The notes: generated from the letters alone by a model not told the origin. Shown: positions 9,316-51,513, counted from the first letter of the stretch. The stretch: DNA of 64,000 bases from a virus (IMGVR_UViG_3300033121_002154:1-64000), one strand, 5' to 3'. Numbers and translations: made by a program.

Positions 9316-9445
9316 TTTAATATTTTTTTAATAATATTTATTAAAATGGTTTTTTTATTAAAAAAAACAAAAACGAAAATGACAAAAAAAAAAATTAATT
9401 AGATTAATCTCAGAACAATATAAAAAGATTGTCAATGAGTTAAAT

Positions 9446-10708
9446 GTGTCAACATTGGTAAGTGCAATGGAGAAAGCTAAAGGACGTGAAAGAATAAGAA
9501 AATATCAAAAAGCTATTGAAAAAACTATCAATGATAAATTAAAAAGTTTGGGTGAGATAAAATTTAAAGAGAGAGATTCTGAAAAGGAATTAAATTTATG
9601 TAAAATAGGTGTTGTATTGGATTTTGGAGATTATCCTGTTGATATTGAAATTAATAATAAAGAATACGGAAAAGATAGTATTCAATATGTAACATATAGT
9701 GTTGATACTATTTCAAAATATAATGAATTTATTGATTTTATTAAAAATTCAAATTTAAAAATGAATGGAAATCTTTATGAGGTTAAAACTTATGGAGATG
9801 AAAAATTTATTGAAATTCCAATTAATAAAACATTAGAAAATTATAATACAAAATTTTTAGTATTATCTATTCAAAAAAATGTTAGAAAAGATAATGAAAT
9901 AAAAATAAAATATAAAGTAGGAAATGAAATTAAGACTGATAGTCCACAAAGCTTTTTTGATAAAGTATTCTTTAACTGTCTGGAAAATGTCAAATTTATA
10001 ATTGAAAAATTAAAAACAGAATTTGGATTTATTTTAAAATCCAACTCAACTATAGATGTGTGGATTGATGATAATTTTAAAATAAATGATAAACCTGTAA
10101 GAATTATTTATTATCTCAAGGCAAATGGATCAGATACATTAGAAATAAAAAATGATAAAAGATATTTATTAAGTGGTGATGTTGGAAAATCATTAAGAGC
10201 CCCTTGGCCTGATGCTGAAATCAAATTATCAGATAATTTAATTTCAGCTTTAAAACAATATTTTCCAAATGTTTCAAGAGATATTCAAAAAATTAATCAA
10301 GATACAATTCAAAGAAAAACTGAAGAATTAAGTAAACAGCAATCTCTTAAATCTGAAAAGAAAAATGCAAAGAATGTCTTAAAAGATTTTTTTACAAATT
10401 TAGAAAATAGAAAATTAAAAGCTAAAGTTTCTTCAAGATATGAAAGAGATAATCAGAATTATGATTTTGTTATAAGTAAATTTAATATATCTACTGATAA
10501 ATCTGATATCACATTAATAGATGATAAAGGTTGGAATAAAATTTTTATTTCCTTTAATGGTCAAAAAACAATTTGGTTTAAAATGGGTAGTACACCCTCA
10601 AGAGCTGATGAAGTAGTTTTTGATAGAAGATCTGCAGGAATTCTTGTAAAGTTGGCAAAAGTTGTTTGGAATATGGACTTAAAACCTTATGAAATTCCGC
10701 AATTTTAA
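9446..10708 (+). CDS. hypothetical protein; leader lies upstream, frameshifted in an A11 tract
   Basis: 420-aa ORF with GTG start; in-frame upstream KKKLIRLISEQ, but the ATG at 9379 is one base out of frame. Confidence 0.7.
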   Translation: MSTLVSAMEKAKGRERIRKYQKAIEKTINDKLKSLGEIKFKERDSEKELNLCKIGVVLDFGDYPVDIEINNKEYGKDSIQYVTYSVDTISKYNEFIDFIKNSNLKMNGNLYEVKTYGDEKFIEIPINKTLENYNTKFLVLSIQKNVRKDNEIKIKYKVGNEIKTDSPQSFFDKVFFNCLENVKFIIEKLKTEFGFILKSNSTIDVWIDDNFKINDKPVRIIYYLKANGSDTLEIKNDKRYLLSGDVGKSLRAPWPDAEIKLSDNLISALKQYFPNVSRDIQKINQDTIQRKTEELSKQQSLKSEKKNAKNVLKDFFTNLENRKLKAKVSSRYERDNQNYDFVISKFNISTDKSDITLIDDKGWNKIFISFNGQKTIWFKMGSTPSRADEVVFDRRSAGILVKLAKVVWNMDLKPYEIPQF

Positions 10709-15318: not shown

Positions 15319-15963
15319 ATGACAAATAACAAAGCACTTTTAACTGAATGTAGAATCTGGAATACTTCTAAACAGTTAGTTATTGAACAAACAGAAAAGG
15401 GTATTCAAAAACTTTTTTTAAAAGGAAAAATTCAAGAAGCAGAAGCTGAAAATCAAAATGAAAGATTTTACCCAATGCATATTCTTGAAAGAGAAGTTGA
15501 AAATTTTAAAAAAATTATAGCTTCAAATAGTACTCAGGCAATCGGTGAATTAGATCATCCTGAAAATGCAGTTGTAAATTTAGAAAATGCATCACACATA
15601 ATGAGAGATATTTGGTGGCAAGGAAGAGAAGTCTGGGGAAAATTGGAAGTTTTAAACGGGCCAGATCCATATGGAACACCTAAGGGTAGAATATTGGAGA
15701 GTTTAATTCGAAGAGGATTAACTGTTGGAATATCAAGCCGAGGAGTGGGTTCAACATTGGATGATAGAAATGGAAAAGAAATCATTCAAGATGATTATCA
15801 AATTATTACATTTGATATTGTTAGTAATCCTTCAACAAGAGGGGCATTTTTATTAAAAGAAAATTATGCTAAATTAAGTAAACCATTAACTGCAAAACAA
15901 CTTAATCACATAAAATATTTTAAATTAAATAACATTTTAACTAAAATTTTGGGACAGGGATGA
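15319..15963 (+). CDS. prohead protease (T4 gp21-like)
   Basis: NQNERFYP, GELDHP, GISSRGVGS, DIVSNPS motifs. Confidence 0.93.
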   Translation: MTNNKALLTECRIWNTSKQLVIEQTEKGIQKLFLKGKIQEAEAENQNERFYPMHILEREVENFKKIIASNSTQAIGELDHPENAVVNLENASHIMRDIWWQGREVWGKLEVLNGPDPYGTPKGRILESLIRRGLTVGISSRGVGSTLDDRNGKEIIQDDYQIITFDIVSNPSTRGAFLLKENYAKLSKPLTAKQLNHIKYFKLNNILTKILGQG

Positions 15964-27031: not shown

Positions 27032-27221
27032 TATTACTAATAAATTTGAAAATCTTGATTCAAATATTAAAATATTTTCTGAAATTAAAAATGGTGAATG
27101 TCATTTTGATGTGTTTTACAATGATAAAACAATAACGAAATTTTTTGTTATCATGAGTGATGCTTCAGAAGAAGATGCAAAAAAATTTATTTTAAAAAGA
27201 ATTAAAGAATATATTTTATGA
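27024..27221 (+). CDS. hypothetical protein
   Basis: 65-aa ORF overlapping both neighbours. Confidence 0.5.
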   Translation: MTDITNKFENLDSNIKIFSEIKNGECHFDVFYNDKTITKFFVIMSDASEEDAKKFILKRIKEYIL

Positions 27222-28336
27222 TTAATTTTAATGAACATTTAAAAACATTAAAAGAACTTACTGAAGCCAGACTAAACATAAATTTTTGTAGAAATGTACT
27301 TACATATTTTGATTATAGAATAATCAGCAGCAAAATTAAAAGAGATGGCGGAAAAAGAAATATATTCAAAACTTACAATAATTTTATAGACATTCTTCCT
27401 AATACTTTAAGAAAAAAATGCTTTAATTTATTTTTAAAATTAAGAGATGACATAAAATTATCGATATTGACAGATAGACATGGAGCTGAACATGAACTTT
27501 TATATGAACTAATAAAGTATGCTAAATTGCATATAAAAGATGATAATAAAGTTGATAATTTTAATTTAGTTTTTTATAATAATATTAACCAAGAATCAAA
27601 AGATAAAATTGTATATTTTTTACAAAAAGCTGTTAATATATTAAAAAAAGATTTTGATTTTTTAATATACGGCAAAATTTTAGTACAAAATGTTGGTCAT
27701 GCTGGTGCAACATATGCTCATGAACTTGACAGCATAGCTCTACGATATAACATTTTAGATTATTCTAAAGGTAATGAATTTGCTACTGAGACAATAATTC
27801 ATGAAATTGGACATAGATATTGGTATAAATTTATGACAAGTAGTGAAAGATATGATTATAAAAAAGGTGTTGAAGTAAATAAAGTTATAATTACTGCAAA
27901 TGATAGACGTAATATTTTTAAAAAATTAGGTAATTTAATGTATTCTTTGTATAAATATGGCATTAATGATCAAAATTTCAAAAAAAATGTTTTATGGCAA
28001 TATAAACATTATACTAAAGATGAAAAAACAAAATTACTTTTTTGGTTAAAATATAAAGGCTTAAATGATATTTTTGCAGCCATTGCAAAAGTTAGCAAAT
28101 GGTATGATATTGAAAAAGATGAATTGATAAACAGCGCAAAAGATTATATTGTTGGAAATGAAAATGATATAATTATTACAACCAAAAACAGACAACATAT
28201 GAATATTTTGGGGCCAACAAATTATGGAAGAAAAAATGTTGAAGAGAGTTTTGCTGAGACATTTTTATATTATGTGTTAAATAAACCATTAGACAAAGAA
28301 CTAAAAGATATTTTTTTAAAAGCAATAAAAAAATAA
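27218..28336 (+). CDS. zincin metallopeptidase-domain protein
   Basis: IIHEIGH with downstream YGRKNVEESFAE; N-terminal LKELTE/A. Confidence 0.75.
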   Translation: MINFNEHLKTLKELTEARLNINFCRNVLTYFDYRIISSKIKRDGGKRNIFKTYNNFIDILPNTLRKKCFNLFLKLRDDIKLSILTDRHGAEHELLYELIKYAKLHIKDDNKVDNFNLVFYNNINQESKDKIVYFLQKAVNILKKDFDFLIYGKILVQNVGHAGATYAHELDSIALRYNILDYSKGNEFATETIIHEIGHRYWYKFMTSSERYDYKKGVEVNKVIITANDRRNIFKKLGNLMYSLYKYGINDQNFKKNVLWQYKHYTKDEKTKLLFWLKYKGLNDIFAAIAKVSKWYDIEKDELINSAKDYIVGNENDIIITTKNRQHMNILGPTNYGRKNVEESFAETFLYYVLNKPLDKELKDIFLKAIKK

Positions 28337-28370
28337 TGAAAAAATTAATTCAAATTATAAATGAAATGAA

Positions 28371-29072
28371 ATGAAATATGATTCTAATATTTTTATACGT
28401 TTCGGTGGATTAAGCATTAAAAAACAACATGGATATTCCGCTAATTCTAAAACTTTTCATACTCCTCCGGCAAAAAGAGGTGTATATGCATTTCCTGTGA
28501 AGGCAATAGAATTATTTTTATTAGGTGGAAATTATCAAAAATATTCATATCAACAATTAAAAGCACGAGGTGCAAAAACTTTTAAATATAATGGCCAAAT
28601 TTGGCATCATTTGGGAAATAGACTAAAACCAAATGAAATTTTAGTTAGAAAAGGTGAATGGGTAAAATCTGAATTTATTTATTGGGAGAAAGCTTTTAAA
28701 AAAGAATCATTGAACAATAAATATGGTTATGGCGGTGATTTATTTGGTAGAATAAAAAGTATCAATGAACCAATTAGATCAGGAGTAAGCGGAGGATTTT
28801 CAAAAGATAATCTTGAAGTATTTATAGAAGATAAAATTGGAAATGAACCGATAAAATCAAATCAACAAAAAACAAAACTTAAAAGGCCAAAATATTCTGT
28901 AATGAGTTATGCTGGTAGAACTGCTGAAGAAATTAAATTATTTGAAATTACTCTTAAAAGAGGATTTTTTAATCTTGAAAAAGCTATTAAATATAGGAAT
29001 TTACTAAATACAAAATATTTAAATGCTGAGTTTTTTGTTGTTGATAATTTAACAAATCAAACGATAGAATAA
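28371..29072 (+). CDS. hypothetical protein; leader detached upstream by an (ATGAA)3 repeat
   Basis: FIRFGGL..FHTPPAKRGVYAFP; upstream mini-ORF MKKLIQIINEMK* at 28336-28374. Confidence 0.7.
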   Translation: MKYDSNIFIRFGGLSIKKQHGYSANSKTFHTPPAKRGVYAFPVKAIELFLLGGNYQKYSYQQLKARGAKTFKYNGQIWHHLGNRLKPNEILVRKGEWVKSEFIYWEKAFKKESLNNKYGYGGDLFGRIKSINEPIRSGVSGGFSKDNLEVFIEDKIGNEPIKSNQQKTKLKRPKYSVMSYAGRTAEEIKLFEITLKRGFFNLEKAIKYRNLLNTKYLNAEFFVVDNLTNQTIE

Positions 29073-29075
29073 AAT

Positions 29076-30122
29076 TTGAAAATTATTGGAAACCTACCTA
29101 ATGTTGGTAAATATCAAGTGGCTTATTTTGATAAAAACACTGATACTTTGATTACTTATAAAGGTACACATGCTGATCAAAATTTATTAAAAATTTTAAA
29201 AGATAATTCAATTTCTCGAGAATATTTTAATAAAGGTTTTATTGATCATTCTATTCAAGGTGGGTTTACGGATAATAAAGGAAAATTTTTTACTAATTCG
29301 GATAATACAAATTTGAAAAGAGAATCAAAAATAATCAAAGAAAGTCCTGATAAAATTTATAATACTGGTGCATTTTTAGTTGGTGCTTTTTCTCAGTCTA
29401 ATTATTCATTTGGATATTTCCAAAATAAATTATTAATAGAAAAAGATTTAGTTCATTATCGAATATTTTATAAATATCTTACATCAAATTTAAAAAGCAA
29501 TAAATTAGATTTAATGAAAGCAAATCAATCATTTAATGTAAATGAGTATATTATAAATAAAAATGATTATTTTTTAATTGACAAAATTAAAACATTTATT
29601 TTAATTTTTAATAATTTATCAAATAAATTTGATAAAAAAATAGAATTATCTGAGAAAAAAGGTTATGAAGTTTTTAAAAGCAGTACTGAAGTACCTAAAA
29701 GAATAATATTCAAATTTTGTGGTAGATTTTGGCCAAAAGCAAAAGTAATTAGTTTTTGGATAAATCCAACAAAAACTGAATTAAAAAAATTAATTTTAGA
29801 TATAAAAAGAAAAGTTAATATAGAAATAACTGATGATTGGTTATTTGAATATGAAGAAGATAAATTAATTAAGCTTGGTGATTATCTTGGTCATGTAAGA
29901 AAAAATACTGATATAGAAAAACAGCATACTGTTTCACCAATATTTAAAACAAAAAGAGATATTGAGGGGTTTGGTTCTGATAAATATAATAAACTTGCTA
30001 AAACAATGAATTATGATAATACTGCTCAAATGAATTATTATCATAAAAATCAGTATTATAAATTTGAAGAAAAGAAATTAAAAAATTTTATTACAAAAAT
30101 AATTATTGAATGTAAATTATGA
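29076..30122 (+). CDS. two-domain protein with ESPD/GRFW-family domain
   Basis: Internal IIKE/SPD; GRFW..SFW..GFGSDKY..AQMNY; C-terminal LKNFITKIIIE helix. Confidence 0.65.
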   Translation: MKIIGNLPNVGKYQVAYFDKNTDTLITYKGTHADQNLLKILKDNSISREYFNKGFIDHSIQGGFTDNKGKFFTNSDNTNLKRESKIIKESPDKIYNTGAFLVGAFSQSNYSFGYFQNKLLIEKDLVHYRIFYKYLTSNLKSNKLDLMKANQSFNVNEYIINKNDYFLIDKIKTFILIFNNLSNKFDKKIELSEKKGYEVFKSSTEVPKRIIFKFCGRFWPKAKVISFWINPTKTELKKLILDIKRKVNIEITDDWLFEYEEDKLIKLGDYLGHVRKNTDIEKQHTVSPIFKTKRDIEGFGSDKYNKLAKTMNYDNTAQMNYYHKNQYYKFEEKKLKNFITKIIIECKL

Positions 30123-31111
30123 AATTAACTAAAATTATAAATGAATCAAATTTAATTAATATTCCAAGACAAATGCTTGGTGGAACTTTTGCATTTATTA
30201 AAGCCAGATTTTTGACAATTTCTTATAAATATTCTATTGAATATCAAAAAGCTATTAATATAGAATATAAAAGAAAATCAAATTATGGAATTAAACAGAT
30301 AAATCAAGAATTTAAAAAATTAGGTTTATTAACTTTAGAAAATAATAATGCAAAAGAATTTGAATTTTCTCATATGATATTTCCATTAAATTATCAAAAA
30401 AGATTAGAAAATATTAGCCCTTTAAAGTTACTTGTTATAACTTTTACAAAACTTTCACCAAAAGGGTATTATGTAAATGATAATATTGGTATTAAAATTG
30501 ATCAAGTAATAAGAATAACTGTAGATAAAAATAAACATATTATGAGAAATCTTACTTATAGAGAATTTAATTTAAAAAAGACACATCAATATTCAATAAG
30601 TTTTTTTGAAAGAGATGCATTTACTTATTTAAAATCATTAAGTGAAACTCTTGAACATGAACTTACACATTTTATTGACTATAAATTAAGAAAAGCACAA
30701 AAAATTAGTAATATTGAAAAAGTTAGTGTTGACGCTAAAGATTTTATGGATTTTAATGTTGAAAAATATTTTCAATCAAAAACTGAATACAAAACTCAAT
30801 TATTAACATCTTATAGAGGATTGATAAAATATTATGCTCATTATAAGATAACATATGAAAATTTATTTTCAGCATTTCAAGGTTTTCAGAATTCTATTAT
30901 TTTACCACATTGGAGTATATATTTAATATATAATGCCATATATCCACAGAAAATTGAAAAGATTTTAAAAACTATCTTAAATACTTTTTATAAGACCGGG
31001 AGATTATTAAGAGATAATAAGAAAGAAAAAATTTACATGAAAAAATATATTAAAATTTTATTATCATATAATAAATTACTTAAAAAACAGAGAAATGACA
31101 AAACAACTTAA
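30119..31111 (+). CDS. leader-bearing zincin-like (HExxH) protein
   Basis: MKLTKIINES; LEHELTHFID...YFQSKTE. Confidence 0.6.
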   Translation: MKLTKIINESNLINIPRQMLGGTFAFIKARFLTISYKYSIEYQKAINIEYKRKSNYGIKQINQEFKKLGLLTLENNNAKEFEFSHMIFPLNYQKRLENISPLKLLVITFTKLSPKGYYVNDNIGIKIDQVIRITVDKNKHIMRNLTYREFNLKKTHQYSISFFERDAFTYLKSLSETLEHELTHFIDYKLRKAQKISNIEKVSVDAKDFMDFNVEKYFQSKTEYKTQLLTSYRGLIKYYAHYKITYENLFSAFQGFQNSIILPHWSIYLIYNAIYPQKIEKILKTILNTFYKTGRLLRDNKKEKIYMKKYIKILLSYNKLLKKQRNDKTT

Positions 31112-33165: not shown

Positions 33166-33435
33166 ATGAATGGAGCACAATTTAGAAGTTTAATAGTTAA
33201 TAGAAGACCAGATATGGATTTTGATTTTGTAGATACAAATTTAATAGATTCAATGCATGAAATGACTTGGGATATTGATGATAAAGTTAAAAAAGAAAAA
33301 ATTCAAAATGAATTATATGAAATTCAAAAGCAACTTTCAAATAAACTTGAAAAAGTAAATTTTATTTATCAGTCTTTTATAAAAGCATTAATTACTGAAT
33401 ATAAACAAAAGGGTGAAAAAGCTTTAAAACAATGA
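33166..33435 (+). CDS. small helical protein, paralog family (4 of 4)
   Basis: LIVNRRPD..DFVD...FIYQSFIK. Confidence 0.65.
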   Translation: MNGAQFRSLIVNRRPDMDFDFVDTNLIDSMHEMTWDIDDKVKKEKIQNELYEIQKQLSNKLEKVNFIYQSFIKALITEYKQKGEKALKQ

Positions 33436-34892
33436 AAAAATTGAAAAAACTTCTTGATATAATTAATGAAAATAATGCAAAAAATGCTTATAATTTAATA
33501 AAAAATATTATTAAAAATACTAAGTGGGATAATAGAATTTTTGCAGCAGGCGGATATGTTAGAGATGAACTTTTAAAAAATACATCAAAAGATTTAGATA
33601 TTGTTGTAAATGCAGATAATGGCGGAATTGAATTTGCAGAATGGTTAGCAAAAAAACTTAAAATATATAAGGCAAATTCAAATCCAGTAGTCTTCAAAAA
33701 TTTTGGAACAGCTAAATTATCACTTAAAGGTATAAAATATAATGGTTATGATTTATCAGATTTTGAAGTAGAATTTGTTATGCCAAGAGGAGAAAAATAT
33801 ACGATTGGTTCAAGAAAACCAGAAGTTTATAAGAGTGATTTAAAACAAGATGCTTTACGAAGAGATTTAACTGTAAATTCTCTTTTTAAAAATTTGACAA
33901 ATGATGAAATATTAGATTTAACAGGAAAAGGAATAACTGATTTAAAATTCGGTATAGCAAGAACTCCATTAAATAATCCCGATGAGACATTCAAAGACGA
34001 CCCACTTAGGATGCTTAGGTTAATAAGATTTTCTTGTAAATACGGCTGGAAATTACCAAGATTTATGTTATTGGCTTTAAAGAAAAATGCACAAATGATT
34101 CAGCATATTAGTAAAGAAAGAGTTAGAGATGAATTTGATAAAATTTTAATTTCACCCAATCCAGATAAAGGAATTAGATTGATTCAGTGGACGGGATTAA
34201 GTAAATGGATATTACCAGAATGGGATTCGTTAGTAGGATTAACTCAAAATAAATATCATAATCAAACTGTTGATAGACATATTTTAAGTGTTGTAAAAAA
34301 TGTTCCAAGTCATTTAATAGCAAGATTAATTGCTGCATTTCATGATATTGGAAAAGCAGACACAAAAAGTGTTATTGATGGAGAAGTTCATTTTTATTTA
34401 CATGAAGACATTGGTGCTGATATTGCAGAAAAAATTATGAAAAGATTAAAATATCCTATTGATATAATTAATGCAGTCAAATTAGGAATTAAAAATCATA
34501 TGAGATTAAAAGGCTCAGGAAATGAAGGTGAGATAATTTCTGATAAAGCTTTAAGAAAATTAAAATTTGAATTGGGAGAACATCTTGAAAATATTCTTGA
34601 TGTCATGCATGCTGATAATATTTCTCATTCAGATGAACATAGTATGCCAAATCAGATTCCGGGTATAAGAAAAAGATTATCATCATTAAGTGATATACCA
34701 AAAAATCAGCATATTAAATTACCAGTGTCTGGAAATGATTTAATTATTATTTTTGGAGTAAGACCTGGGCCAATTATGAAAGAAATTTTGAAAGCAGTTG
34801 AAGATGAATTCTTTAACAATCCAGATATGACAAGAGAAGAAGCATTACAAATAGTAAAAAATTTCATAGATGAATATAAATTTAAAAAATGA
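33432..34892 (+). CDS. cca: class II tRNA nucleotidyltransferase (CCA-adding enzyme) with HD domain and leader
   Basis: AGGYVRDELL..DLD, DALRRDLTVNS, DDPLRMLR, ISKERVRDE, FHDIGK; N-terminal MKKLKKLLDIINEN. Confidence 0.9.
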   Translation: MKKLKKLLDIINENNAKNAYNLIKNIIKNTKWDNRIFAAGGYVRDELLKNTSKDLDIVVNADNGGIEFAEWLAKKLKIYKANSNPVVFKNFGTAKLSLKGIKYNGYDLSDFEVEFVMPRGEKYTIGSRKPEVYKSDLKQDALRRDLTVNSLFKNLTNDEILDLTGKGITDLKFGIARTPLNNPDETFKDDPLRMLRLIRFSCKYGWKLPRFMLLALKKNAQMIQHISKERVRDEFDKILISPNPDKGIRLIQWTGLSKWILPEWDSLVGLTQNKYHNQTVDRHILSVVKNVPSHLIARLIAAFHDIGKADTKSVIDGEVHFYLHEDIGADIAEKIMKRLKYPIDIINAVKLGIKNHMRLKGSGNEGEIISDKALRKLKFELGEHLENILDVMHADNISHSDEHSMPNQIPGIRKRLSSLSDIPKNQHIKLPVSGNDLIIIFGVRPGPIMKEILKAVEDEFFNNPDMTREEALQIVKNFIDEYKFKK

Positions 34893-38959: not shown

Positions 38960-39754
38960 ATGACATTAAAAAAAATATTAAATGAATTGATATATGCCGA
39001 AAAAATTCCAAATGATTTATCAAAAATTTATTGGAAAAATGGTAGAATTGCATTTAGCACAGATGACATGACAATGTTATTTGATTCTATAATTTTTGGA
39101 GTTAACAAAGAATCAAAAGAATTATTTTATTATACAATGGATGATTGGTCTGAAATTCGTTCAATCAAGCATATTCAGCAAGCTTTAAAAGATTTAATAC
39201 GTGCAAAAATTATTGATTTAACATGGATTGTAACAATTGAAAGTAAAAAAAATACAATACGTTCTTTAAATTCAAATAAAGTCAAAGACATAATAAATAT
39301 TGATACAAATTTTAGTAATAAAATTCCATTTTGTTTTCATGGAACTTCCACAGAATATCTACCAGATATTTTAAAAAATGGTATTATTAATAGAAAAAAT
39401 TCAAAAACAAAACCAAACTGGGATAAAGGATATGTTGAAATATCTAAATATAACATTTATCTTACAATTGATTATCAACGTGCAGTTTATTACGCAAACA
39501 AAACAGTAGAAGCAAATAAAAATCAAGGAATAATTTCAAAGCCAATAGTTATAATGATCAAAGATTTAGATACTAAATTTGCAATAACTGATGATGATTA
39601 TTTGACACATAAAAATTTATCATTACTACAATATTTAAGAACAGGTAAGAAAGCAAAAGATAATTATATTCAGGGAATTCGTAATACATCACAATTTGCA
39701 TATACAAAAAATATTCCTGCAAATAAAATTTATAAAGTATTTAAACGACATTAA
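38960..39754 (+). CDS. leader-bearing ART-fold protein
   Basis: MTLKKILNE; FHGTS..ILKNGI..IYLT..AVYYA. Confidence 0.6.
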   Translation: MTLKKILNELIYAEKIPNDLSKIYWKNGRIAFSTDDMTMLFDSIIFGVNKESKELFYYTMDDWSEIRSIKHIQQALKDLIRAKIIDLTWIVTIESKKNTIRSLNSNKVKDIINIDTNFSNKIPFCFHGTSTEYLPDILKNGIINRKNSKTKPNWDKGYVEISKYNIYLTIDYQRAVYYANKTVEANKNQGIISKPIVIMIKDLDTKFAITDDDYLTHKNLSLLQYLRTGKKAKDNYIQGIRNTSQFAYTKNIPANKIYKVFKRH

Positions 39755-39765
39755 AAAAGGAAAAA

Positions 39766-40248
39766 ATGCCAACAATTAATTTAAGTATTAAAGTTATTCC
39801 ACAAGGTTTATATGATAAAAATAATGACTCACTTATAACAGAAGTTTATCCAACTGTTAATTTGTGGTCACTTACATCTGGAACAAAACAATTGTCAGGT
39901 CAAAGTACAGCAGTTTTAAATAGATATACATTTAAAACTCAAATGAGTTATTCATATGCTGGTTCGGCTTCTGCAGATCGTCCACTTTATATTCAAGTGA
40001 CACTTCCAAACCATATTGAAATTTGGAGTAGTACATCAATAATATTCAATCAATCAGTTACATCAAATTATAATTATGATTTTACGATAGCTCAAACAAA
40101 AACATTAGGAGATAATTCAATTAATGTAAGTACTTCATCTTCAAGATTTGCAATGTTTGTTGGTGATTTAAATAATGATGGAATAATTGACACAACTGAT
40201 TTAAGTACTTTAGAAAATAATATGGATATTTATGCAATTACCCCTTAA
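39766..40248 (+). CDS. host-like beta domain ending in one dockerin/EF-hand-like repeat
   Basis: NHIEIWS...YDFT...GDN...RFAMFVGDLNNDGIIDTTDL. Confidence 0.6.
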   Translation: MPTINLSIKVIPQGLYDKNNDSLITEVYPTVNLWSLTSGTKQLSGQSTAVLNRYTFKTQMSYSYAGSASADRPLYIQVTLPNHIEIWSSTSIIFNQSVTSNYNYDFTIAQTKTLGDNSINVSTSSSRFAMFVGDLNNDGIIDTTDLSTLENNMDIYAITP

Positions 40249-40256
40249 ATAAAAAT

Positions 40257-41420
40257 ATGGATATATTAGATAAAAAAATAGAGAACCCAGAAACACATAG
40301 ACAGATAAAATTAAGTACTGCATTACATCATGATAAAGATGATACAGTATATAAAACAGCCAAAAATATTATTGATAAAAGTAAAAAAGAAAAAAAACCA
40401 AAAAAAGAACCAAGTATTTTTATTAAAAAATATGGCAATTTAAAATTAAATGCATTTCCACCTGAAGATGTGAAAGAGGAAGATGTAAAAGTTAATACAG
40501 AAGGTGACATTCATAGTCATGCTGTGTTAACTTGGCGTGATCCAAAAACTGGTCGTGCTGTAAATAGTTACACTCAAAAATTTATGAAAAGAAATGCAAA
40601 AATTAAATGGGCTAGAATAAAAAAATTAAATAGCCATAAAGTTGAATCTATAATAAAAGAATCAAATGATGAATTAAATTCAGATGATCCCGAAATAAGT
40701 GATAGTGCTGCAATCATTTCTATAATTGCACAAACTGGATTAAGAATAGGTGATCATACCAATTATAATAGAACTAAAAATCGTGGTGTAATGACACTTG
40801 GTCCTGAAAATATAAAAATTGAAGACAATATAATTAAATTAAATTTTGTAGGTAAAAGTTATAAAGAAAACAATGCATCGATAAAAGATGAAAAATTAGC
40901 AAATTATTTACAAAAAAGATTAAATGAAAATAAAGATAAAAATTTTATATTTGATACTGGGTATAATGAAGTAAATAGTTTATTTGATAAATTTGCTGGA
41001 AATAAATTTAAAATCAAAGATTTAAGAACATATACTGCAACAACTATGGCAAAAAATATTCTCTTAAAAGATAAAACTCCACCGCCACCTTTGCCTGAAA
41101 ATGATAGACAAATAAAAAAAGCAATTAAGAAAAAATTATTAAATGTATTTGAACAAGTTAGCCAGAGATTAAATAATACACCAGCAATGGCAAAATCAAG
41201 TTATATTCATCCTGAAATTATTAATAAATGGTTAGCAACATTAGGTGTAAGAGAAGAATTAACAAAAGAAGTATATTCAGAAGGAAAAATATTTGTTAAT
41301 TTATTAACAGAAGAAAAGAAAAGTTCAACATTTAAAGTCACAAATGATTTTGAAGATTGTGATGAATATGAATTACCAAAATGGTGGAATGATGAAAATG
41401 TTAAATTAATTAAAAAATGA
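40257..41420 (+). CDS. DNA topoisomerase IB (bacterial/poxvirus-like)
   Basis: GLRIG (Arg), FVGKS (Lys), KDLRTY (Arg), LNNT, SYIHP (catalytic Tyr). Confidence 0.85.
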   Translation: MDILDKKIENPETHRQIKLSTALHHDKDDTVYKTAKNIIDKSKKEKKPKKEPSIFIKKYGNLKLNAFPPEDVKEEDVKVNTEGDIHSHAVLTWRDPKTGRAVNSYTQKFMKRNAKIKWARIKKLNSHKVESIIKESNDELNSDDPEISDSAAIISIIAQTGLRIGDHTNYNRTKNRGVMTLGPENIKIEDNIIKLNFVGKSYKENNASIKDEKLANYLQKRLNENKDKNFIFDTGYNEVNSLFDKFAGNKFKIKDLRTYTATTMAKNILLKDKTPPPPLPENDRQIKKAIKKKLLNVFEQVSQRLNNTPAMAKSSYIHPEIINKWLATLGVREELTKEVYSEGKIFVNLLTEEKKSSTFKVTNDFEDCDEYELPKWWNDENVKLIKK

Positions 41421-42361
41421 AATTAATAAATATTTTAAATGAATTACGATATTTAGATTATCAAAAAGATATTGCTAATAATAAAATTTTAAAAGATAAT
41501 GAAACAATTTCAGTATTTCACGGGTTTGCTCAATTAAATCAAGCATTGTTAGCAATAAAATTTGGATTATCTGGTAAAGAAAATGCTGATAGAAGATATA
41601 GTTATGAATATGGTAATAATCCTAAAGGTTTATTTGTAAGTGCAGATATTCAAACAATAATTCGCTCACATTTTGCAGGTAGCGGTGTCATCATTCAATT
41701 TTCAACAAAAGTAAAAAATCTTGAATCACCTGTTTGGGTAGGTGGAAGAAGTTACTTTGTTCAAGGTGAATATACAAAAAGTTTTAAAGATGATAATGAA
41801 AGAGAAGAACAAAGATTAAAAAATAGAGAAAGAGATAGTGCAAATATATATCCAACAATTTCAAAAAGTGATAGGCCTGAATTGGCACAAACATTATTTG
41901 ATAATATGGAACATCAAGCTTTGTTTATTGGACATTTAAATCCAAATATGATTAAGTATGTTTGGGTACATAAAAATTTAATGATTAACAAAAGAACAAG
42001 TGGAATATGGAAGAAAATGCAACCAAAAGTATTTTTAAAAAAATATTTTGAATCAAATGCTAAATCAAAAACACAATCTTATAATAGAAAAACTCAAAAA
42101 TGGGAATATGGAGAAGAGGATTATTCTGATGAATATTATAAACATTTAGATAAAATTTTTAAACCAAATGATGATTTTAATTTAAATAAAGTTAATGAAT
42201 ATTTTAAAAAACATAAATTTACAATAAGTGGAAATGAATATACATCTTTTACTCTAAATACATTTTTAAAATCTTTTTATCAAAGTAGAATTTATGAAGA
42301 TTATATAGACAAAATGTTTTGGCCAAAACAAATTGAGCAAATTGAGCAACTTTTAAAATAA
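41417..42361 (+). CDS. leader-bearing possible ART-fold protein
   Basis: MKLINILNE; VFHGF..GLSG..GLFVS..EHQALF. Confidence 0.5.
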   Translation: MKLINILNELRYLDYQKDIANNKILKDNETISVFHGFAQLNQALLAIKFGLSGKENADRRYSYEYGNNPKGLFVSADIQTIIRSHFAGSGVIIQFSTKVKNLESPVWVGGRSYFVQGEYTKSFKDDNEREEQRLKNRERDSANIYPTISKSDRPELAQTLFDNMEHQALFIGHLNPNMIKYVWVHKNLMINKRTSGIWKKMQPKVFLKKYFESNAKSKTQSYNRKTQKWEYGEEDYSDEYYKHLDKIFKPNDDFNLNKVNEYFKKHKFTISGNEYTSFTLNTFLKSFYQSRIYEDYIDKMFWPKQIEQIEQLLK

Positions 42362-42423
42362 TTTAAATATTAAATTATAATATTTATATAAAAGTTTTTA
42401 TTTTTTTAAATAAATTTTTAAAT

Positions 42424-42639
42424 ATGCCAAAATCAACAACAACAGCAAATGATACTTTAGATGCTTTATTAAGATCAGTAGATCCATCATGGAGAAGTGG
42501 GGCAACAAGATATGTAGCATTACATACAGGTGATCCTGGCAATCCAGCAACAATTACTCCAAATAGCATTATTTCAGGAGATGTAGAGGTAGATATTTCA
42601 GGTAATGGTGAAACATTATCAATTTTAACTAGACAATAA
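42424..42639 (+). CDS. short virion/tail-fibre-associated protein, possibly truncated
   Basis: YVALHTGDPG motif recalled from longer phage structural proteins. Confidence 0.45.
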   Translation: MPKSTTTANDTLDALLRSVDPSWRSGATRYVALHTGDPGNPATITPNSIISGDVEVDISGNGETLSILTRQ

Positions 42640-43046
42640 TGATTAATACTTTATCAGTTGCTACAAGAAGGAAGCTTTGTTCAACACTTAAAAAGACATT
42701 ATCAATAGCGGCATTTGGTTTACTTATACAACAAGATATTACTGAGCCAATTATTCAACAGGATGTAGTAACAAAAACTCATTATGGTGGCGGTGGTAAT
42801 TCTGAAGTTAGAATAAAAAATAAAAATCAAAACCAAAAAGCAAAATTTTTATCTTTTAAAATTAAACTTAAAGGAACAAATAAATGGCAACATGTTGTAT
42901 ATGATAACAAAGAAAATAATGATATATTATTTTTATTAATGAACAATCCATTGATAACGAAAGAAAATATAAAATTAAAATTTAATTTGAAAACATATGA
43001 AAATGAAAAAAAGTTTACTTTTACATTAAATCAGGGAAAAATATGA
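42639..43046 (+). CDS. hypothetical protein
   Basis: 135-aa ORF coupled to its neighbours. Confidence 0.5.
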   Translation: MINTLSVATRRKLCSTLKKTLSIAAFGLLIQQDITEPIIQQDVVTKTHYGGGGNSEVRIKNKNQNQKAKFLSFKIKLKGTNKWQHVVYDNKENNDILFLLMNNPLITKENIKLKFNLKTYENEKKFTFTLNQGKI

Positions 43047-43513
43047 AATTAGACATAACTGAAAAACAAAATATAGAGTTTGATTTACAATTTTCTGGAG
43101 CAGATTCAGATGAATTGAAACCAAGACTGGTTTTACATGAAAACAATTATTCTTTAGTCTTTGAAGGTAAATTAAGTAAAGGGAAATGTAATTTTTCATT
43201 ACCTATATTATCAAAAGTAATTCAAAGCAAAAAAATGCTTGCTGAAATTGAGGTGATTGTAGAAAATAAAATATATAAACCGTGGTCATCAGATATTGAT
43301 ATTGAGAGTCCAATTAATTTCAATATCAAAGAAAGTAACAATCAATCCAAACTTGATGTTGTATTTGAAAACATAAATGTAAAAAATGTATCAAAGATGA
43401 TTAAGGTTAAAACCCCAAGAGGATTAAAAGAATACAAATTACTTAAGCGAGGTGAAAAAGAAATTATTGTTGAAGATAATAGAGGCAAAGAAAAAACAAT
43501 AAAAATAAAATAA
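43043..43513 (+). CDS. conserved large-phage hypothetical protein
   Basis: PRLVL...AEIEVIVE...PW pattern. Confidence 0.55.
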   Translation: MKLDITEKQNIEFDLQFSGADSDELKPRLVLHENNYSLVFEGKLSKGKCNFSLPILSKVIQSKKMLAEIEVIVENKIYKPWSSDIDIESPINFNIKESNNQSKLDVVFENINVKNVSKMIKVKTPRGLKEYKLLKRGEKEIIVEDNRGKEKTIKIK

Positions 43514-43516
43514 TTT

Positions 43517-44008
43517 ATGATAATATTACAAAATGACTCAGAAAACCTTGAACAAACATTTGTTCGTAAAGGTTTAATTGCACATATTCCTATATTAATA
43601 GATGGGGAAACATATTGGGCAACAGACACTCAAACACTCCATGTTGGTCAAGCAGACGGAAAGAATAAAGTATTTTATCCTGGACAAATAGGTTATACAA
43701 TTATAGATGCAGTTGGTGAACCTATTCAGGTTGATTGTTCATTTAATATAAATTTTTATATTCCATTTTACGGTGATGGTGTTAGTAACTCTCAAGTTAT
43801 GTTAAATAATATGCCAGAAGGAAAGTGGATAACTGTAGTATCTGATAATTATGTACCTGGGTATGGTGAATATGAATTTATAGATGTAATATGGCCAACG
43901 GATGAGCCGACAGCTGATGATACACAAACATTTTTTTATTCTTTCATTAAATTTAATGGCAAAATTTTTGGAACCAGTAGAAAAAAATACCCATATACAG
44001 TACTTTAG
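43517..44008 (+). CDS. tail-fibre N-terminal-like protein
   Basis: PILIDGETYWATDTQTLHVG resembles the Mtd/hyaluronidase N-terminal fibre-attachment motif. Confidence 0.5.
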   Translation: MIILQNDSENLEQTFVRKGLIAHIPILIDGETYWATDTQTLHVGQADGKNKVFYPGQIGYTIIDAVGEPIQVDCSFNINFYIPFYGDGVSNSQVMLNNMPEGKWITVVSDNYVPGYGEYEFIDVIWPTDEPTADDTQTFFYSFIKFNGKIFGTSRKKYPYTVL

Positions 44009-47000
44009 TTTAACAATAATATTATTTTTAGCTTTATTTGTCAATGGAGTTGCACAGCCAATTTTTACTCCTCCGCAGCCAAATAGAACTGTAAAGAAAT
44101 ATTTTGTTAGTAAATTAGGAAATGATGCAAATAGTGGACTAACAGCTGGTACATCTTGGCAGACATTAGATAGAGTAAATAGACAAAGATTGTTTAGTGG
44201 TGATTCTGTTGTATTTAATGGTGGTGATACTATTTTAGGTTCTTTAAATTTAAATTCACAAAAAAATTCTCAATTTAATAATATTGATGTTAGTTCAGTA
44301 TTACCAATAAGTTTTAATAGTTATGGAACCGGAAAAGCAACATTAAAATGTGCAGATACATTATCTTATGTTGTTAAAATTACTTATTTAGCTAAAACAA
44401 AAATTACATTTAAAAATTTAAATTTCTTAGGTATTTATGATGCAGTATCTTATTCAGGCGGTAATAATTCAATTGGATATGGAATTGTAATTGATAATTA
44501 TACAAGAAATTTTTATGTTGATAAAAATGGCATTAATATTTATCCCGGTTCAGGAGGATTGTTTAGTGTTGATTCTTGTAGATTTTCAAGGTTTAAAACT
44601 GCAGGAATAGGATTAATAGTTGTATCACCATTAAAACAGGAAGCAACATTTAATATAACCTCAAATGATTTTGATAGTATTGGATTTACTGGAATTTATG
44701 GAATTGGAATTTATAGCTGCAATGTTAATATTACAAATAATAGCATTACAAATATAATTGGAAAAAATTCAACAGATAATTATTCTTCAGCAGGAATATT
44801 TTTTAATAGAGTAAACAATGCTTCAATTCAATATAATTACATAAATAAAATTGGCATGAATAATCTTCAGTCATTTGGTGGAGTTTATATTGCTGGTTCA
44901 TCAAATTGTGAAATAAGAAGAAATGAAATTAAAAATGTAAGAAATAAAACCGGAAGTGATGGGGCAGGAATATATTTTAATTGTCAATCTGATTCAAATT
45001 CAGCTGAATATAATTACATTGCAAATTGTGAAACAGGTATAATTTTAAGTAATGCTACAAATAATTCTTGTCCAGATTGGCACACACCAGAAGATGAATT
45101 TGTTCAATCATCTTATAATGTTGCTGCTTATAATATTATAATGATGGATTCCGGTGCAACAACTGGAATATCTTTATATAATTATCCCTATAGATCTGTA
45201 TATACAAGATATGATGGTAGATTTCCAAAAAGAAATTTTATTTATAATAATTTACTTTATATAAAAAGATCCAAAGATATTGGACAATCTAATATGGATG
45301 ATACTGCATATTTTACTTGTGGTATTAGACAATTTGGATATAATGATTCAACATACATTTATAATAATATACTTTATTTAAAAGATTCAACTTTAGCAAT
45401 TTCTACAGCACTTACACATTCATCTGATATAAGTGATTCATTAACTAATCAATGGGGCAATTTATTTACAAATTCAAAAATTTTAAATAACAATTATTAT
45501 TTTGAAAATGAAGATAGTACTTATAGATTTTCAGAACAATTAGGAACATTTGGACCTGCACCAAATTATTATCCGCTTTCAAGAAAATTTTTATATCCAA
45601 CATATTGGTCTGATTCCACAAGTTCAGAAAAAGATGTTGATTATTTATATTCATATTATAATACTGATCCTGGTATAAAAAACATAACTCAAAATTTATC
45701 AGTGAAAATAAATCCATATGAATTTGATACATTAACATGCTTTCAGATAACCGATATTTATTCCAATGTGCTCGGAAATGGCACAGATTTTAATACTGAT
45801 ATTCAAAAAATTGCAAATGTTTTATCACTTGATATTTATGGTAATGCAATACCACAACAACCTTCATTAGGTGTTTATCAAGGATATATTAGAACAAGAC
45901 ATTATTATGTATCTTCTGCTGGCGATGATAATAATAGCGGGCTTTTAACCACAAGAAGCTTTAAAACTTTAACAAAAATCAGTACAATTAATCTTCATTC
46001 TGGTGACACAGTTTCATTTAAAGGTGGTGATATAATTTATGGTCAATATAATAAAACAATTGTTTTAAAAAATGACTCAAGTAAAATTGTGTTTAATAGT
46101 TATGGTACCGGAAAAGCAACAATTGAGGCAATTGTTGGACAAGATAAAATATTTAATTTAAATTATAGCAAACAAATAAAATATGAATTTAAAAATCTTA
46201 TTTTTAAAGGAGATTATGATGCATATAATCGCTCTGGAGATACATTAAATCAATATGGAATAATGTTCACAAATTCAGACAAAACAATTACACCAGAATG
46301 CAGTAACTTTTATTTTAATATAGATAGTTGTGAATTTACTGGATTTAAAGTATCAGGATTATGTTTAATAAATAATAATTATTATATTAGAGGATATTTA
46401 AGAATACAAAATTCTAATTTTCATGATATTGGTGTCAAAGGATTTGAAATTTATCGTATATATTATTCTGATTTTAAAGTTACAAATAACTCTATAACGA
46501 ATATTTATGGTAAGTGGGGAGGAACAACACCACATAGTTCTAATACATATAATTTATATGCTTATGCTACATATATAATTCAATCGAGAGGTTTGATAAT
46601 TGATTCCAATTATGTAAATAATATTGGGAATTATGCTGCTGGTTGTGGGTTGTATGTTTCTGCCAGTAAAAGTGTAAAATTTCAACATAATGAAGTTAGA
46701 AATATAAAGACTATGACTGGTGTTGAGGGTCATAGTTTATATCAAGATTGTGGTAGTGATTCGGTTTTATTTGAATATAATTATTCACAAAATTCTTATC
46801 ACGGTCTTTCACTTGCAGGTGGTGGTACAATATCATCAGGATATGATCCGATTTATTTCCCTGATGGGGTTGTTGAAGATAATATTGGTTCAAATAATAA
46901 TATTGCAAGATATAATATTTTTATTATGGATTCAACAAGTCATTCAGCTGCAACATTATATTCTGCTGATACAAATTATAGACATGGTGATTATTCATAT

Positions 47001-47633
47001 GCAACTCACAACAATATGTTTTATAATAATTTAGTTTATGCAGGAATAGTTGGAACTCCGGATACGGCTGATGCAAAAGTATATCCATCTGGTATTACAT
47101 CATTTGGTGGGCATGATTCTTTATATGTTTTTAATAATATTTTTATTCTGGATTCTGGAAGAGCATTTAGATTAGAACCCACATATAAAAGTGAACATGG
47201 GCAGACAATAAATGCATTTATTCATAATAATATATATTGGGATGTAGACGGAACTCAAGATAAAATAATTTCACAATGGAGAAAAACAGGATGGACTTTA
47301 GTGACATGGTTTCACTGGTTTGATAAAACTTTTAGCTCACTTACTGAATGGGCTGACTCAACGGGTTATGAAAAAAATGGTATGAGTTATACATTTATAA
47401 ATACAAATCCTAATATTAAAAATATAATGGCTAGAATTTATGGCACATCTGCAAGAATAAAATTACTTGATACATTAAATAATTTTAAACCATTACCAGG
47501 TTCTGTAGCATTTAATAGTGGAACAAACTATAATAATATTGTAAGATATTTGGGCCACGATACTGCAACATATGATTTTTATGGAAATATAATTGATGCA
47601 ACAGATGATATTGGAATATATTCATCACCATAA
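43902..47633 (+). CDS. large tandem right-handed beta-helix protein (depolymerase/pectate-lyase-like) with signal-peptide-like segment; start uncertain
   Basis: Two copies of Y(F/Y)VS..G.D.NSGL...S..TL...GD.V.F.GGD...FNSYGTGKAT; Asn-ladder repeats; IILFLALFVNGVA/Q. Confidence 0.75.
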   Translation: MSRQLMIHKHFFILSLNLMAKFLEPVEKNTHIQYFSLTIILFLALFVNGVAQPIFTPPQPNRTVKKYFVSKLGNDANSGLTAGTSWQTLDRVNRQRLFSGDSVVFNGGDTILGSLNLNSQKNSQFNNIDVSSVLPISFNSYGTGKATLKCADTLSYVVKITYLAKTKITFKNLNFLGIYDAVSYSGGNNSIGYGIVIDNYTRNFYVDKNGINIYPGSGGLFSVDSCRFSRFKTAGIGLIVVSPLKQEATFNITSNDFDSIGFTGIYGIGIYSCNVNITNNSITNIIGKNSTDNYSSAGIFFNRVNNASIQYNYINKIGMNNLQSFGGVYIAGSSNCEIRRNEIKNVRNKTGSDGAGIYFNCQSDSNSAEYNYIANCETGIILSNATNNSCPDWHTPEDEFVQSSYNVAAYNIIMMDSGATTGISLYNYPYRSVYTRYDGRFPKRNFIYNNLLYIKRSKDIGQSNMDDTAYFTCGIRQFGYNDSTYIYNNILYLKDSTLAISTALTHSSDISDSLTNQWGNLFTNSKILNNNYYFENEDSTYRFSEQLGTFGPAPNYYPLSRKFLYPTYWSDSTSSEKDVDYLYSYYNTDPGIKNITQNLSVKINPYEFDTLTCFQITDIYSNVLGNGTDFNTDIQKIANVLSLDIYGNAIPQQPSLGVYQGYIRTRHYYVSSAGDDNNSGLLTTRSFKTLTKISTINLHSGDTVSFKGGDIIYGQYNKTIVLKNDSSKIVFNSYGTGKATIEAIVGQDKIFNLNYSKQIKYEFKNLIFKGDYDAYNRSGDTLNQYGIMFTNSDKTITPECSNFYFNIDSCEFTGFKVSGLCLINNNYYIRGYLRIQNSNFHDIGVKGFEIYRIYYSDFKVTNNSITNIYGKWGGTTPHSSNTYNLYAYATYIIQSRGLIIDSNYVNNIGNYAAGCGLYVSASKSVKFQHNEVRNIKTMTGVEGHSLYQDCGSDSVLFEYNYSQNSYHGLSLAGGGTISSGYDPIYFPDGVVEDNIGSNNNIARYNIFIMDSTSHSAATLYSADTNYRHGDYSYATHNNMFYNNLVYAGIVGTPDTADAKVYPSGITSFGGHDSLYVFNNIFILDSGRAFRLEPTYKSEHGQTINAFIHNNIYWDVDGTQDKIISQWRKTGWTLVTWFHWFDKTFSSLTEWADSTGYEKNGMSYTFINTNPNIKNIMARIYGTSARIKLLDTLNNFKPLPGSVAFNSGTNYNNIVRYLGHDTATYDFYGNIIDATDDIGIYSSP

Positions 47634-47686
47634 TAAAATTTCAAAATAATTTTTTATTGATTAAAAAATATAAAATATTTATTAAA

Positions 47687-49776: not shown

Positions 49777-51513
49777 ATGAATTATAATGAATTAGTAAAA
49801 CTTACTCCGCAATTTAATGAAAGAAGTTTAGAACAAAGAGATAGACGAGCTAAACTTTTGGTTGAAAAGTGGAATAGAACTGGTCTTTTAAAGAAAATGT
49901 CATCTGTTGAAAACAGAAACAATATGGCTATGATTTTAGAAAATCAGGCTTTGGCGTTAAGACAATTAAATGAAAGCTCATCTGTAGCTGATATTGCATC
50001 TTTTAACAAAGTTGCATTTCCGTTAGTAAGAAGAGTTTTCGGTTCTCTTTTAGCAAATGAAATTGTATCTGTACAACCAATGAATATGCCTTCTGGTTTA
50101 TTATTCTATTTGGATTTTGTATATGATAGAACAAAACCTGGATTCTCTTTCGAAAGTGGAAAATCCTTGTATGGTAACAGAAATGCCGTAGTATCTTCAA
50201 AATTGCAGGGGATTGGAGGTATGAACGCTACAGGAGGTTATTATAACCTTAATAGTTCATACTCAAAGCGAATGTTCAGAATATCTTCACAATTGGCATC
50301 TGCTTCTGCTTCATATGCAAGTATTACAGCAACATCACCAACTGTTACAGGAACTTTATCAGGATTTAATTTTACTTTAGCTGCTTCTGATGGAAGTATT
50401 GATATATCTCAATTAAGAGTTATCAGACCTGTAAGATCTGGTGAAATCAGTTATGAAGGTGGATCTTTTAGAAGTTTATCAGCTATAAAATCCATAACGG
50501 CAGATTCACTTGCTCCAACAATTGATCAAGGTTTAACACAGTTAGTTGATGCAAGTACAATTAGAATTTTTTCAAATATATATTTAAAAGGAAATAACTT
50601 AGAACTTGGTAATGCTACTGGTTCTATGTCAGCTGTTTTGGTTGGACCTGCAGCTACAAAAATTGATGATTTAACACCATCAACATTAGTTGGTGATTTT
50701 GAATCTGTATCAGAAATTCCACAAGTAAATATTCAAATTAAATCTGTTCCAGTTGTTGCAGTAACAAGAAAATTGAAAACTGTATGGACACCAGAATTAT
50801 CACAAGATATGAATGCTACTTTAACTTTGGATCCTGATGTTGAATTAACAAAAGTTCTTTCAGAGTCAATTGCACTTGAAATTGATAATGAAATTTTATC
50901 TGATTTATTAGCTGGTGCGGAAGTAAAAGCTGTATGGTCAAGAAAAATCGGTAGATATTTGAAATTAAATGCTGACGGAACTGTTACTTTACAATCATTT
51001 GCAGATGCTTCAAACGGTACCTATCAGGCAAATTTTGGAACACAAAATGAATGGTATCAAACATTTATTGAAACAATCAATGCTTGTTCAAATGAAATCT
51101 ATAAGAGAAATAAAAGATCTGGTGCAAACTGGATTATAGTTTCTCCTGAAATCGCTTCAATCATTGAATCACTTTCACAATTTCAAACTGATATTGTATC
51201 AGATTCAGCAAAATCTATATACTCCGTTGGAGTTACAAAAGTAGGTATGTTGAATAGCAGATATACAGTTTACAAAAATCCTCATATGCCGGTTAATAAA
51301 GTTCTTATCGGTTACAGAGGAGATTCATTCTTGGAAACAGGTTATGTATATAGTCCTTATGTTCCTTTATTAATTACACCGACTATTTATGATCCTGAGA
51401 ACTTCACTCCAAGAAAAGCCGTTATGACAAGATATGCTACCCAAATGGTTAGACCAGAATATTATGGTGTTGTTACCGTATTTGATCTTGATATAATTGG
51501 TAACGGTTTATAA
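49777..51513 (+). CDS. major capsid protein (T4 gp23-like)
   Basis: ILENQ, PLVRRVF..LLANEIVSVQPM..PSGL.F, TRKLKTVWTPELSQD, EIDNEIL, YSPYVPL, F.PRK..MTRY; predicted LNE/S cleavage at E66. Confidence 0.96.
   Translation: MNYNELVKLTPQFNERSLEQRDRRAKLLVEKWNRTGLLKKMSSVENRNNMAMILENQALALRQLNESSSVADIASFNKVAFPLVRRVFGSLLANEIVSVQPMNMPSGLLFYLDFVYDRTKPGFSFESGKSLYGNRNAVVSSKLQGIGGMNATGGYYNLNSSYSKRMFRISSQLASASASYASITATSPTVTGTLSGFNFTLAASDGSIDISQLRVIRPVRSGEISYEGGSFRSLSAIKSITADSLAPTIDQGLTQLVDASTIRIFSNIYLKGNNLELGNATGSMSAVLVGPAATKIDDLTPSTLVGDFESVSEIPQVNIQIKSVPVVAVTRKLKTVWTPELSQDMNATLTLDPDVELTKVLSESIALEIDNEILSDLLAGAEVKAVWSRKIGRYLKLNADGTVTLQSFADASNGTYQANFGTQNEWYQTFIETINACSNEIYKRNKRSGANWIIVSPEIASIIESLSQFQTDIVSDSAKSIYSVGVTKVGMLNSRYTVYKNPHMPVNKVLIGYRGDSFLETGYVYSPYVPLLITPTIYDPENFTPRKAVMTRYATQMVRPEYYGVVTVFDLDIIGNGL

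Follow-up and report, generated by a model that had tools for sequence, protein, structure and literature searches.

We propose that, in the late module of the uncultured, T4-related phage analysed here, a frameshift mutation of the Streisinger type, most simply the gain of one unit in a short tandem repeat, has probably separated an N-terminal leader peptide from its cargo protein at the tag/cargo junction of a T4-type capsid-targeting system, giving a derived loss-of-packaging allele. The locus was studied in a window of 64,000 nucleotides, which corresponds to the first 64 kb of a 92,907-bp IMG/VR virus record (CheckV completeness of approximately 44%; GC content of approximately 24%).

Layout of the locus and the leader family

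The locus lies on the plus strand and begins with the end of a late gene encoding a 372-aa protein (27218..28336), which possesses an HEIGH (HExxH) motif and has no clear leader. The TAA stop codon of this gene (28334-36) shares its last A with the ATG of a mini-ORF, forming a TAATG junction (28334-38). The mini-ORF (28336..28374), the product of which is MKKLIQIINEMK, comprises twelve sense codons and a stop codon (ATG AAA AAA TTA ATT CAA ATT ATA AAT GAA ATG AAA TGA). Its first ten residues, MKKLIQIINE (encoded at 28336-28365), constitute the detached leader of the capsid-targeting type, with the isoleucine and glutamate residues at positions 8 and 10, respectively, while residues 11 and 12 duplicate the Met-Lys start of the cargo protein itself. 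The TGA codon of the mini-ORF (28372-74) overlaps the ATG codon (28371-73) of the next gene (28371..29072), which lies in the −1 frame relative to the leader ORF and encodes the untagged 233-aa cargo protein, beginning with MKYDSN. The junction is embedded in a perfect tandem repeat, (ATGAA)x3 (28361..28375), which TRF reported as (AAATG)x3.8 (28359-77; 100% matches). All these elements, namely the coupled ATG at 28336, the TGA/ATG overlap, the three ATGAA units and the 233-aa gene, had been described in an initial annotation of this DNA and can be read directly from the sequence.

The same annotation regarded the cargo gene as intact and translationally coupled, though untagged. The composition of the late module agrees with this view, in that the 4-nt ATGA overlap is its commonest junction (15 of 71), and a Shine-Dalgarno sequence was observed at only eight of its 72 gene starts. 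As for the repeat, the exact (ATGAA)x3 15-mer occurs once in the window, as compared with 0.02 copies expected from shuffled sequences, and the 92.9-kb record contains five perfect pentanucleotide repeats of three units, as compared with approximately 1.4 in Markov simulations. By itself (ATGAA)x3 is unremarkable in such an AT-rich record; what exceeds chance is its position and the peptide that it cuts off.

That this peptide is a genuine leader is indicated by the other late genes of the phage. Leaders open about 30-36 late genes, all of them in the plus-strand late module that spans approximately 2.8-48 kb, and the minus-strand early genes have none. Thirteen of the plus-strand genes begin with a near-identical 15-mer of the MKITKKQLIKLIKEQ type, and about twenty more begin with shorter or longer variants ending in [LIVM][LIVM]xE, such as MKLTKIINE or MKKLKKLLDIINE. 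The leader family is thus a short propeptide ending in [L/I][L/I]xE that is common to otherwise unrelated late proteins. Using a position matrix trained on 26 leaders of this genome, with which every ATG of the record was scored on both strands, the mini-ORF obtained 16.2 bits and ranked 15th among 2,200 ATGs, i.e. at the top of the approximately 2,170 ATGs that did not serve for training. This score rules out that the mini-ORF is a chance ORF, and its membership of the leader family, as proposed in the initial annotation, is further corroborated by the existence of a fused relative (P0155, see below).

The window also encodes the capsid machinery in which such leaders could operate, namely a T4 gp21-type prohead protease (Peptidase_S77; plus strand, 15319..15963; PF03420, 93.3 bits, E 6e-28, above the curated cut-off), the gene of which is located directly upstream of a run of leader genes, and a T4 Gp23-type major capsid protein (plus strand, 49777..51513; PF07068, E 3e-71; phrog_138). 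In T4, the capsid-targeting sequence (CTS) is made up of the first ten residues of the internal proteins, MKTYQEFIAE (PMC8442874). Proteins that bear it, even foreign ones, are loaded into the head, and gp21 then removes it. Targeting is determined by residues 4 and 7, and processing by residues 8 and 10 (PMC9026906; PMC3012670). Similarly to the CTS of IPI, IPII, IPIII and Alt, MKKLIQIINE is a ten-residue N-terminal propeptide with a Met-Lys start, a hydrophobic residue 8 and a glutamate residue 10, and its I8-N9-E10 end fits the (L/I)-x-E cleavage motif of gp21. Furthermore, both tags occur on unrelated and fast-turning-over accessory proteins, and an S77 protease and a Gp23 capsid protein are found here as in T4 (PMC9026906, PMC3012670, PMC8442874). 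The two systems differ in that the leaders of the present phage are written in another sequence dialect, are carried by tens of genes as compared with a handful in T4, and are known from sequence alone; at the present locus, moreover, a frameshift uncouples the tag from its cargo. By analogy with T4, the most likely role of the leader is to dock its protein in the prohead core, and the protease would be expected to clip it after the glutamate residue.

The fused form in a related phage and the history of the junction

The 90%-identity cluster of the cargo protein contains a second member, P0155 (243 aa; Logan run SRR31051132), which begins with MKKLTQIINEMKYDSNIFIRFGG and is an in-frame fusion, MKKLTQIINE-MKYDSN. 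Its contig, L019 (1,001 bp), harbors (ATGAA)x2 and is collinear with positions 28098-29098 of the window (86.7% identity, blastn), from the tail of the same upstream gene to the head of the same downstream gene. A single ATGAA unit is the sole indel in the 1,001-column alignment, and it is this unit that acts as a frameshifting insertion in the window: the covalent joining of leader and cargo is absent from the window and present in the relative. The initial annotation had predicted that the removal of one ATGAA would fuse the two; in silico, this loss indeed generates MKKLIQIINE-MKYDSN, and nature provides exactly such a fused form. Upstream of the leader, the relative uses an ATGA stop/start overlap, as compared with TAATG in the window. 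The same relative was recognized on two other contigs, L020 and L021, from two runs, which are collinear with positions 38998-47855 (88-93% identity). Taken as a whole, this syntenic relative shows a nucleotide identity of approximately 87-89% to the window. Both contigs join position 42372 to position 43507, and therefore lack a 1.13-kb segment of the window (42373-43506) with small ORFs at 42424, 42639 and 43043. A cluster look-up of ten other tagged cargos retrieved a relative for only one of them, with its leader state unchanged.

Between the window and L019, the cargo gene shows a dS of 0.45 and a dN/dS of 0.14 overall, i.e. 0.06 for residues 1-160 and 0.57 for the C-terminal third; this low dN/dS is an average over both lineages and says nothing about the current selection on the untagged copy. 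Because dS is about 0.45, the two alleles belong to two diverged lineages and are not variants of one population.

More distant homologues shed light on the order of events. The cargo family has 564 members at E≤1e-3, most of which are leaderless. The initial annotation had asked whether homologues of the 28371 gene carry a fused leader, and this turned out to be the case not only for P0155 but also for P0005, P0009, P0070 and P0087. The start of P0005, encoded by contig L006, reads MIKLKDMITE-GKSVGE-FVRFGG, and the leader of this second phage, MIKLKxLLxE, is common to six neighboring genes, including that of a CCA-adding enzyme; P0009, P0070 and P0087 are leader-fused in the same way. CTS-like N-termini were also noticed on P0084 (MKSYAEFVSE) and P0066 (MKKFNEFYAE); as their neighbors on the respective contigs have no clearly common leader, these two cases are suggestive only.

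Since the leaderless homologue P0002, which is 57% identical to the cargo protein, begins with MKYSINYF, the ATG at 28371 is the native start of the family, in front of which the leader was once grafted onto a complete gene. The junction codons of such a graft, AAT GAA|ATG AAA, make (ATGAA)x2 on their own, so that grafting the leader before the native ATG created the substrate for the later one-unit slip. The fused form is probably ancestral and the detachment derived, by parsimony, because the fused architecture matches that of all the other tagged genes and of the distant homologues in the second leader-using phage. The detachment also looks young. Over the leader, the window and L019 differ at two of 30 nucleotides, as compared with about seven differences expected if the leader of the window lineage had evolved neutrally after the two lineages parted (Poisson P of approximately 0.03); because of this deficit, the duplication is probably recent, or the leader is still selected.

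From these data, the following history can be proposed. In the ancestor, the cargo would have been tagged, as MKKL(I/T)QIINE-MKYDSN, and, by analogy with T4, the leader-tagged cargos would have been packaged in the head and injected with the DNA after removal of the propeptide. In the window lineage, slipped-strand mispairing would then have doubled one ATGAA unit and shifted the frame by −1 (equivalently +2), such that the leader ORF would stop at the TGA overlapping the original Met codon of the cargo. The outcome would be a 12-residue leader peptide and an intact, untagged cargo protein, whose synthesis would be coupled to that of the peptide by termination-reinitiation. The untagged cargo would presumably still be a late product, but one that stays behind in the cytoplasm instead of reaching the next host. 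We infer that the allele represents the loss of packaging of an accessory injected protein, reversible in principle by the loss of one unit, and that in all likelihood it arose recently and is either neutral or a step towards the loss of the gene.

Frameshifts arising by slippage in short tandem repeats are classics of T4 rII and lysozyme genetics. The present event resembles them in the gain of one unit in a short direct repeat, in its frameshifting effect and in its reversibility in principle. It differs from them in that the protein survives: the shift falls at the tag/cargo junction, where it recreates a stop/start overlap and strips off only the address label. The loss of packaging also fits the ease with which internal proteins disappear. 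These proteins are accessory, host-specific and easily lost, and the deletion of ipIII in evolving T4 alters the host range (bioRxiv 10.1101/2022.04.14.488369). The likeness lies in the ready loss or change of dispensable, host-specific internal proteins between close lineages; the difference is that the whole gene was deleted in T4, whereas here only the targeting would be lost and the enzyme body is kept.

The locus provides two natural versions of one cargo, one tagged and one untagged, in a pair of closely related uncultured phages, and their existence independently supports the view that the shared N-terminal peptide is a separable address label rather than a part of the enzymes. It also illustrates how such labels come and go: they are grafted ahead of an entire gene that retains its start codon, and a one-unit slip at the very junction made by the graft can remove them again. 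This offers a concrete mechanism by which T4-like phages could rapidly renew the set of proteins that they inject.

Alternative explanations and the question of switching

Several other explanations were weighed against the derived slip. The extra ATGAA could have been introduced during sequencing or assembly, or the consensus could have adopted a minor variant; in either case, the gene of the actual phage would be fused. The record is indeed a metagenome assembly, the only near relative has (ATGAA)x2, and a second frameshift of the record is found in an A11 run, a classic site of errors. However, a clean 5-bp tandem duplication is atypical of short-read or homopolymer error, as the initial annotation had already argued, no further indel separates the window from the relative across the 1-kb region, and the product retains a perfect ATGA overlap, such that we regard an artefact as quite improbable. 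It is also conceivable that the mutation is bypassed during translation, some ribosomes shifting by −1 or hopping by +5 between identical codons (for instance at the AAA preceding the UGA) to produce the fused protein and a low packaged dose of it. The repeat units being identical, any +5 hop within them would restore the fused sequence; the stop codon enters the A site after AAA, and low-level +5 and +6 hops over stops occur in E. coli. Such recoding nevertheless seems very unlikely at this locus, where no slippery heptamer of the X XXY YYZ type occurs, where the downstream structure is not significant (fold z of −1.69), and the arrangement of which is not conserved, the relative being in frame. 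This in-frame relative and the fold z-score led us to reject programmed frameshifting as the main reading.

According to yet another scenario, leader and cargo were never fused: recombination at the ATGAA microhomology would have placed a leaderless gene, complete with its ATG, behind a resident leader and out of frame. The occurrence of a Met right after the leader Glu, together with the MKY start of P0002, does show that a leader was at some time grafted onto a complete gene. But in the syntenic relative, where the flanking genes are the same, the junction is in frame and differs by one repeat unit only, from which it follows that the graft predates the split of the lineages and was in frame; we therefore give very little credence to this scenario. 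The derived slip remains our preferred reading.

A repeat-length switch between packaged and cytoplasmic forms was the central proposal of the initial annotation. Its first half holds, in that one extra unit detaches the leader; the switch itself is unsupported, the two alleles being found in diverged lineages and the tract numbering three units. In its full form, the proposal is that of a contingency locus, where the ATGAA tract would gain and lose units often, each population would hold both packaged (x2) and cytoplasmic (x3) forms, and the A11 tract would further diversify the arsenal. In line with this idea, the x2 and x3 states both occur in nature, the x3 state keeps the cargo intact with a clean stop/start overlap, the leader sequence is undecayed, and another leader has come off at the A11 run, which no other homopolymer of the record exceeds in length. 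Two of about 37 leaders are thus detached, both at slippage-prone tracts, which is mildly above a single random accident. The repeat lies inside a reading frame, and the length of its unit (5 nt) is not divisible by three. Yet the tract, which numbers three units in the window as compared with two on L019, is too short for high-frequency slippage; known phase-variable loci possess many more units, or homopolymers of eight or more. Likewise, alleles drawn from lineages separated by a dS of about 0.45 amount to a single mutational event, the repeat follows automatically from the codons at the junction (...NE|MK...), and it is one of the five comparable 5-mer x3 repeats of the record. We thus consider a contingency locus unlikely.

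The initial annotation had tied its proposal to two expectations, the existence of fused homologues and a length polymorphism of the tract. The former was borne out, whereas exact-flank pattern scans of viral and metagenome contigs for other ATGAA lengths found none, which is a weak negative, as near-identical records may be missing from the contigs scanned. Hypermutable tracts do exist in phage genes, e.g. the polyG tracts of Campylobacter phage receptor-binding genes (PMC10877375). The present locus is akin to them in that the frame in which an accessory phage function is read depends on the length of a simple-sequence repeat; it differs in that the former are long homopolymers with measured within-population variation, as compared with three 5-mer units here.

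The other detached leader (plus strand, 9379..10708) precedes a 420-aa ORF located between the terminase (8101) and portal (10740) genes. Its ATG ACA is followed by the A11 tract (9384-9394), which is longer than any other homopolymer of the 92.9-kb record, and runs into a TAG stop codon; with A10 instead of A11 it would read MTKKKLIRLISEQY, continuous with the 420-aa ORF. A database search with the 441-aa read-through protein matched nothing but itself. The A11 case could reflect an error, polymerase slippage or true variation. A speculative extension, in which the ATGAA and A11 tracts together toggle effectors between packaged, injected forms and late, undelivered ones, with +5 hopping adding a small packaged dose from x3, is in our opinion rather improbable; if it were true, a single phage population would possess a combinatorially variable injected arsenal. 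On the present evidence, the slip at the ATGAA tract is an ordinary frameshift mutation, and regulated or frequent switching is not shown.

The cargo family and other leader-tagged proteins

The cargo protein consists of a conserved N-domain (approximately residues 1-160), with the motifs FVRFGG, FHxPP, YAFP, WHHL and EVF, followed by a variable C-domain. Neither Pfam nor PHROG assigned a family to it or to its neighbors, including the upstream 372-aa protein. A PDB sequence profile search yielded no matches, and the ESM Atlas returned unnamed clusters only. An AlphaFold (AF2) model of the cargo built from 80 homologues had a mean pLDDT of 82; Foldseek found nothing in the PDB at E≤1e-3 with this model, and the best VIA-align matches of the N-domain were all ADP-ribosyltransferases, at Z<5, namely DarT1 (8baq; Z 4.8, rmsd 4.5 Å over 124 residues), 7yk3, 7omv and OspC3/CopC. 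The family has invariant R10, H30, Y39 and E149 residues, which are compatible with an ADP-ribosyltransferase (ART) and are no proof of it, and two or three of its members gave weak WHH/colicin-DNase matches. An ART-like enzyme is our leading guess for the cargo.

Seven long relatives from other metagenomes (P0032, P0043, P0046, P0057, P0083, P0113 and P0134; 560-1,008 aa) have the cargo domain as their C-terminus, and N-terminal regions with weak matches to polymerase-beta-type nucleotidyltransferases (NTP_transf_2). This fusion may be a functional clue to the cargo domain. With regard to nucleotide-level relatives, a blastn search of the locus against 50,697 phage records gave no match, and a tblastn search with the cargo gave only two, both leaderless homologues of megaphages (LR756502 and LR756504). 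A related-locus search of viral contigs retrieved no relative of the cargo, and a single 30%-identical match for the upstream gene.

Several other proteins of the late module bear on the leader system. Among the tagged, putatively injected enzymes are an ART-PolyVal ADP-ribosyltransferase (at 34889) that calls to mind T4 Alt, the winged-helix protein at 47657 described below, and a CCA-adding enzyme (at 33432). The last of these (33432-34892), which comprises a PolyA_pol head and an HD domain, bears the MKKLKKLLDIINE leader. A CCA-adding enzyme tagged with MIKLKNLLNE is also encoded by the unrelated-looking, leader-using phage contig L006 (7857-9113), and it seems that a tRNA-repair enzyme recurs among the tagged cargos. 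The prohead protease itself (15319-15963) begins with MTNNKALLTE, and QLVIE follows soon after. These two leader-like cleavage motifs are reminiscent of the autoprocessing proposed for T4 gp21.

A receiver-less winged-helix protein of the OmpR/PhoB type is encoded at 47657-48316 (Trans_reg_C, E 3e-13). Its true start is likely the ATG at 47687, from which it would begin with MITIKKILNE and be a leader-tagged DNA-binding protein. Finally, an HExxH motif occurs in both of the cargo-module proteins flanking the locus, as HEIGH in the upstream 372-aa protein (27218-28336) and as HELTH in a 330-aa protein (30119-31111), neither of which has a Pfam or PHROG match; both may be zinc metallopeptidase-like cargo.
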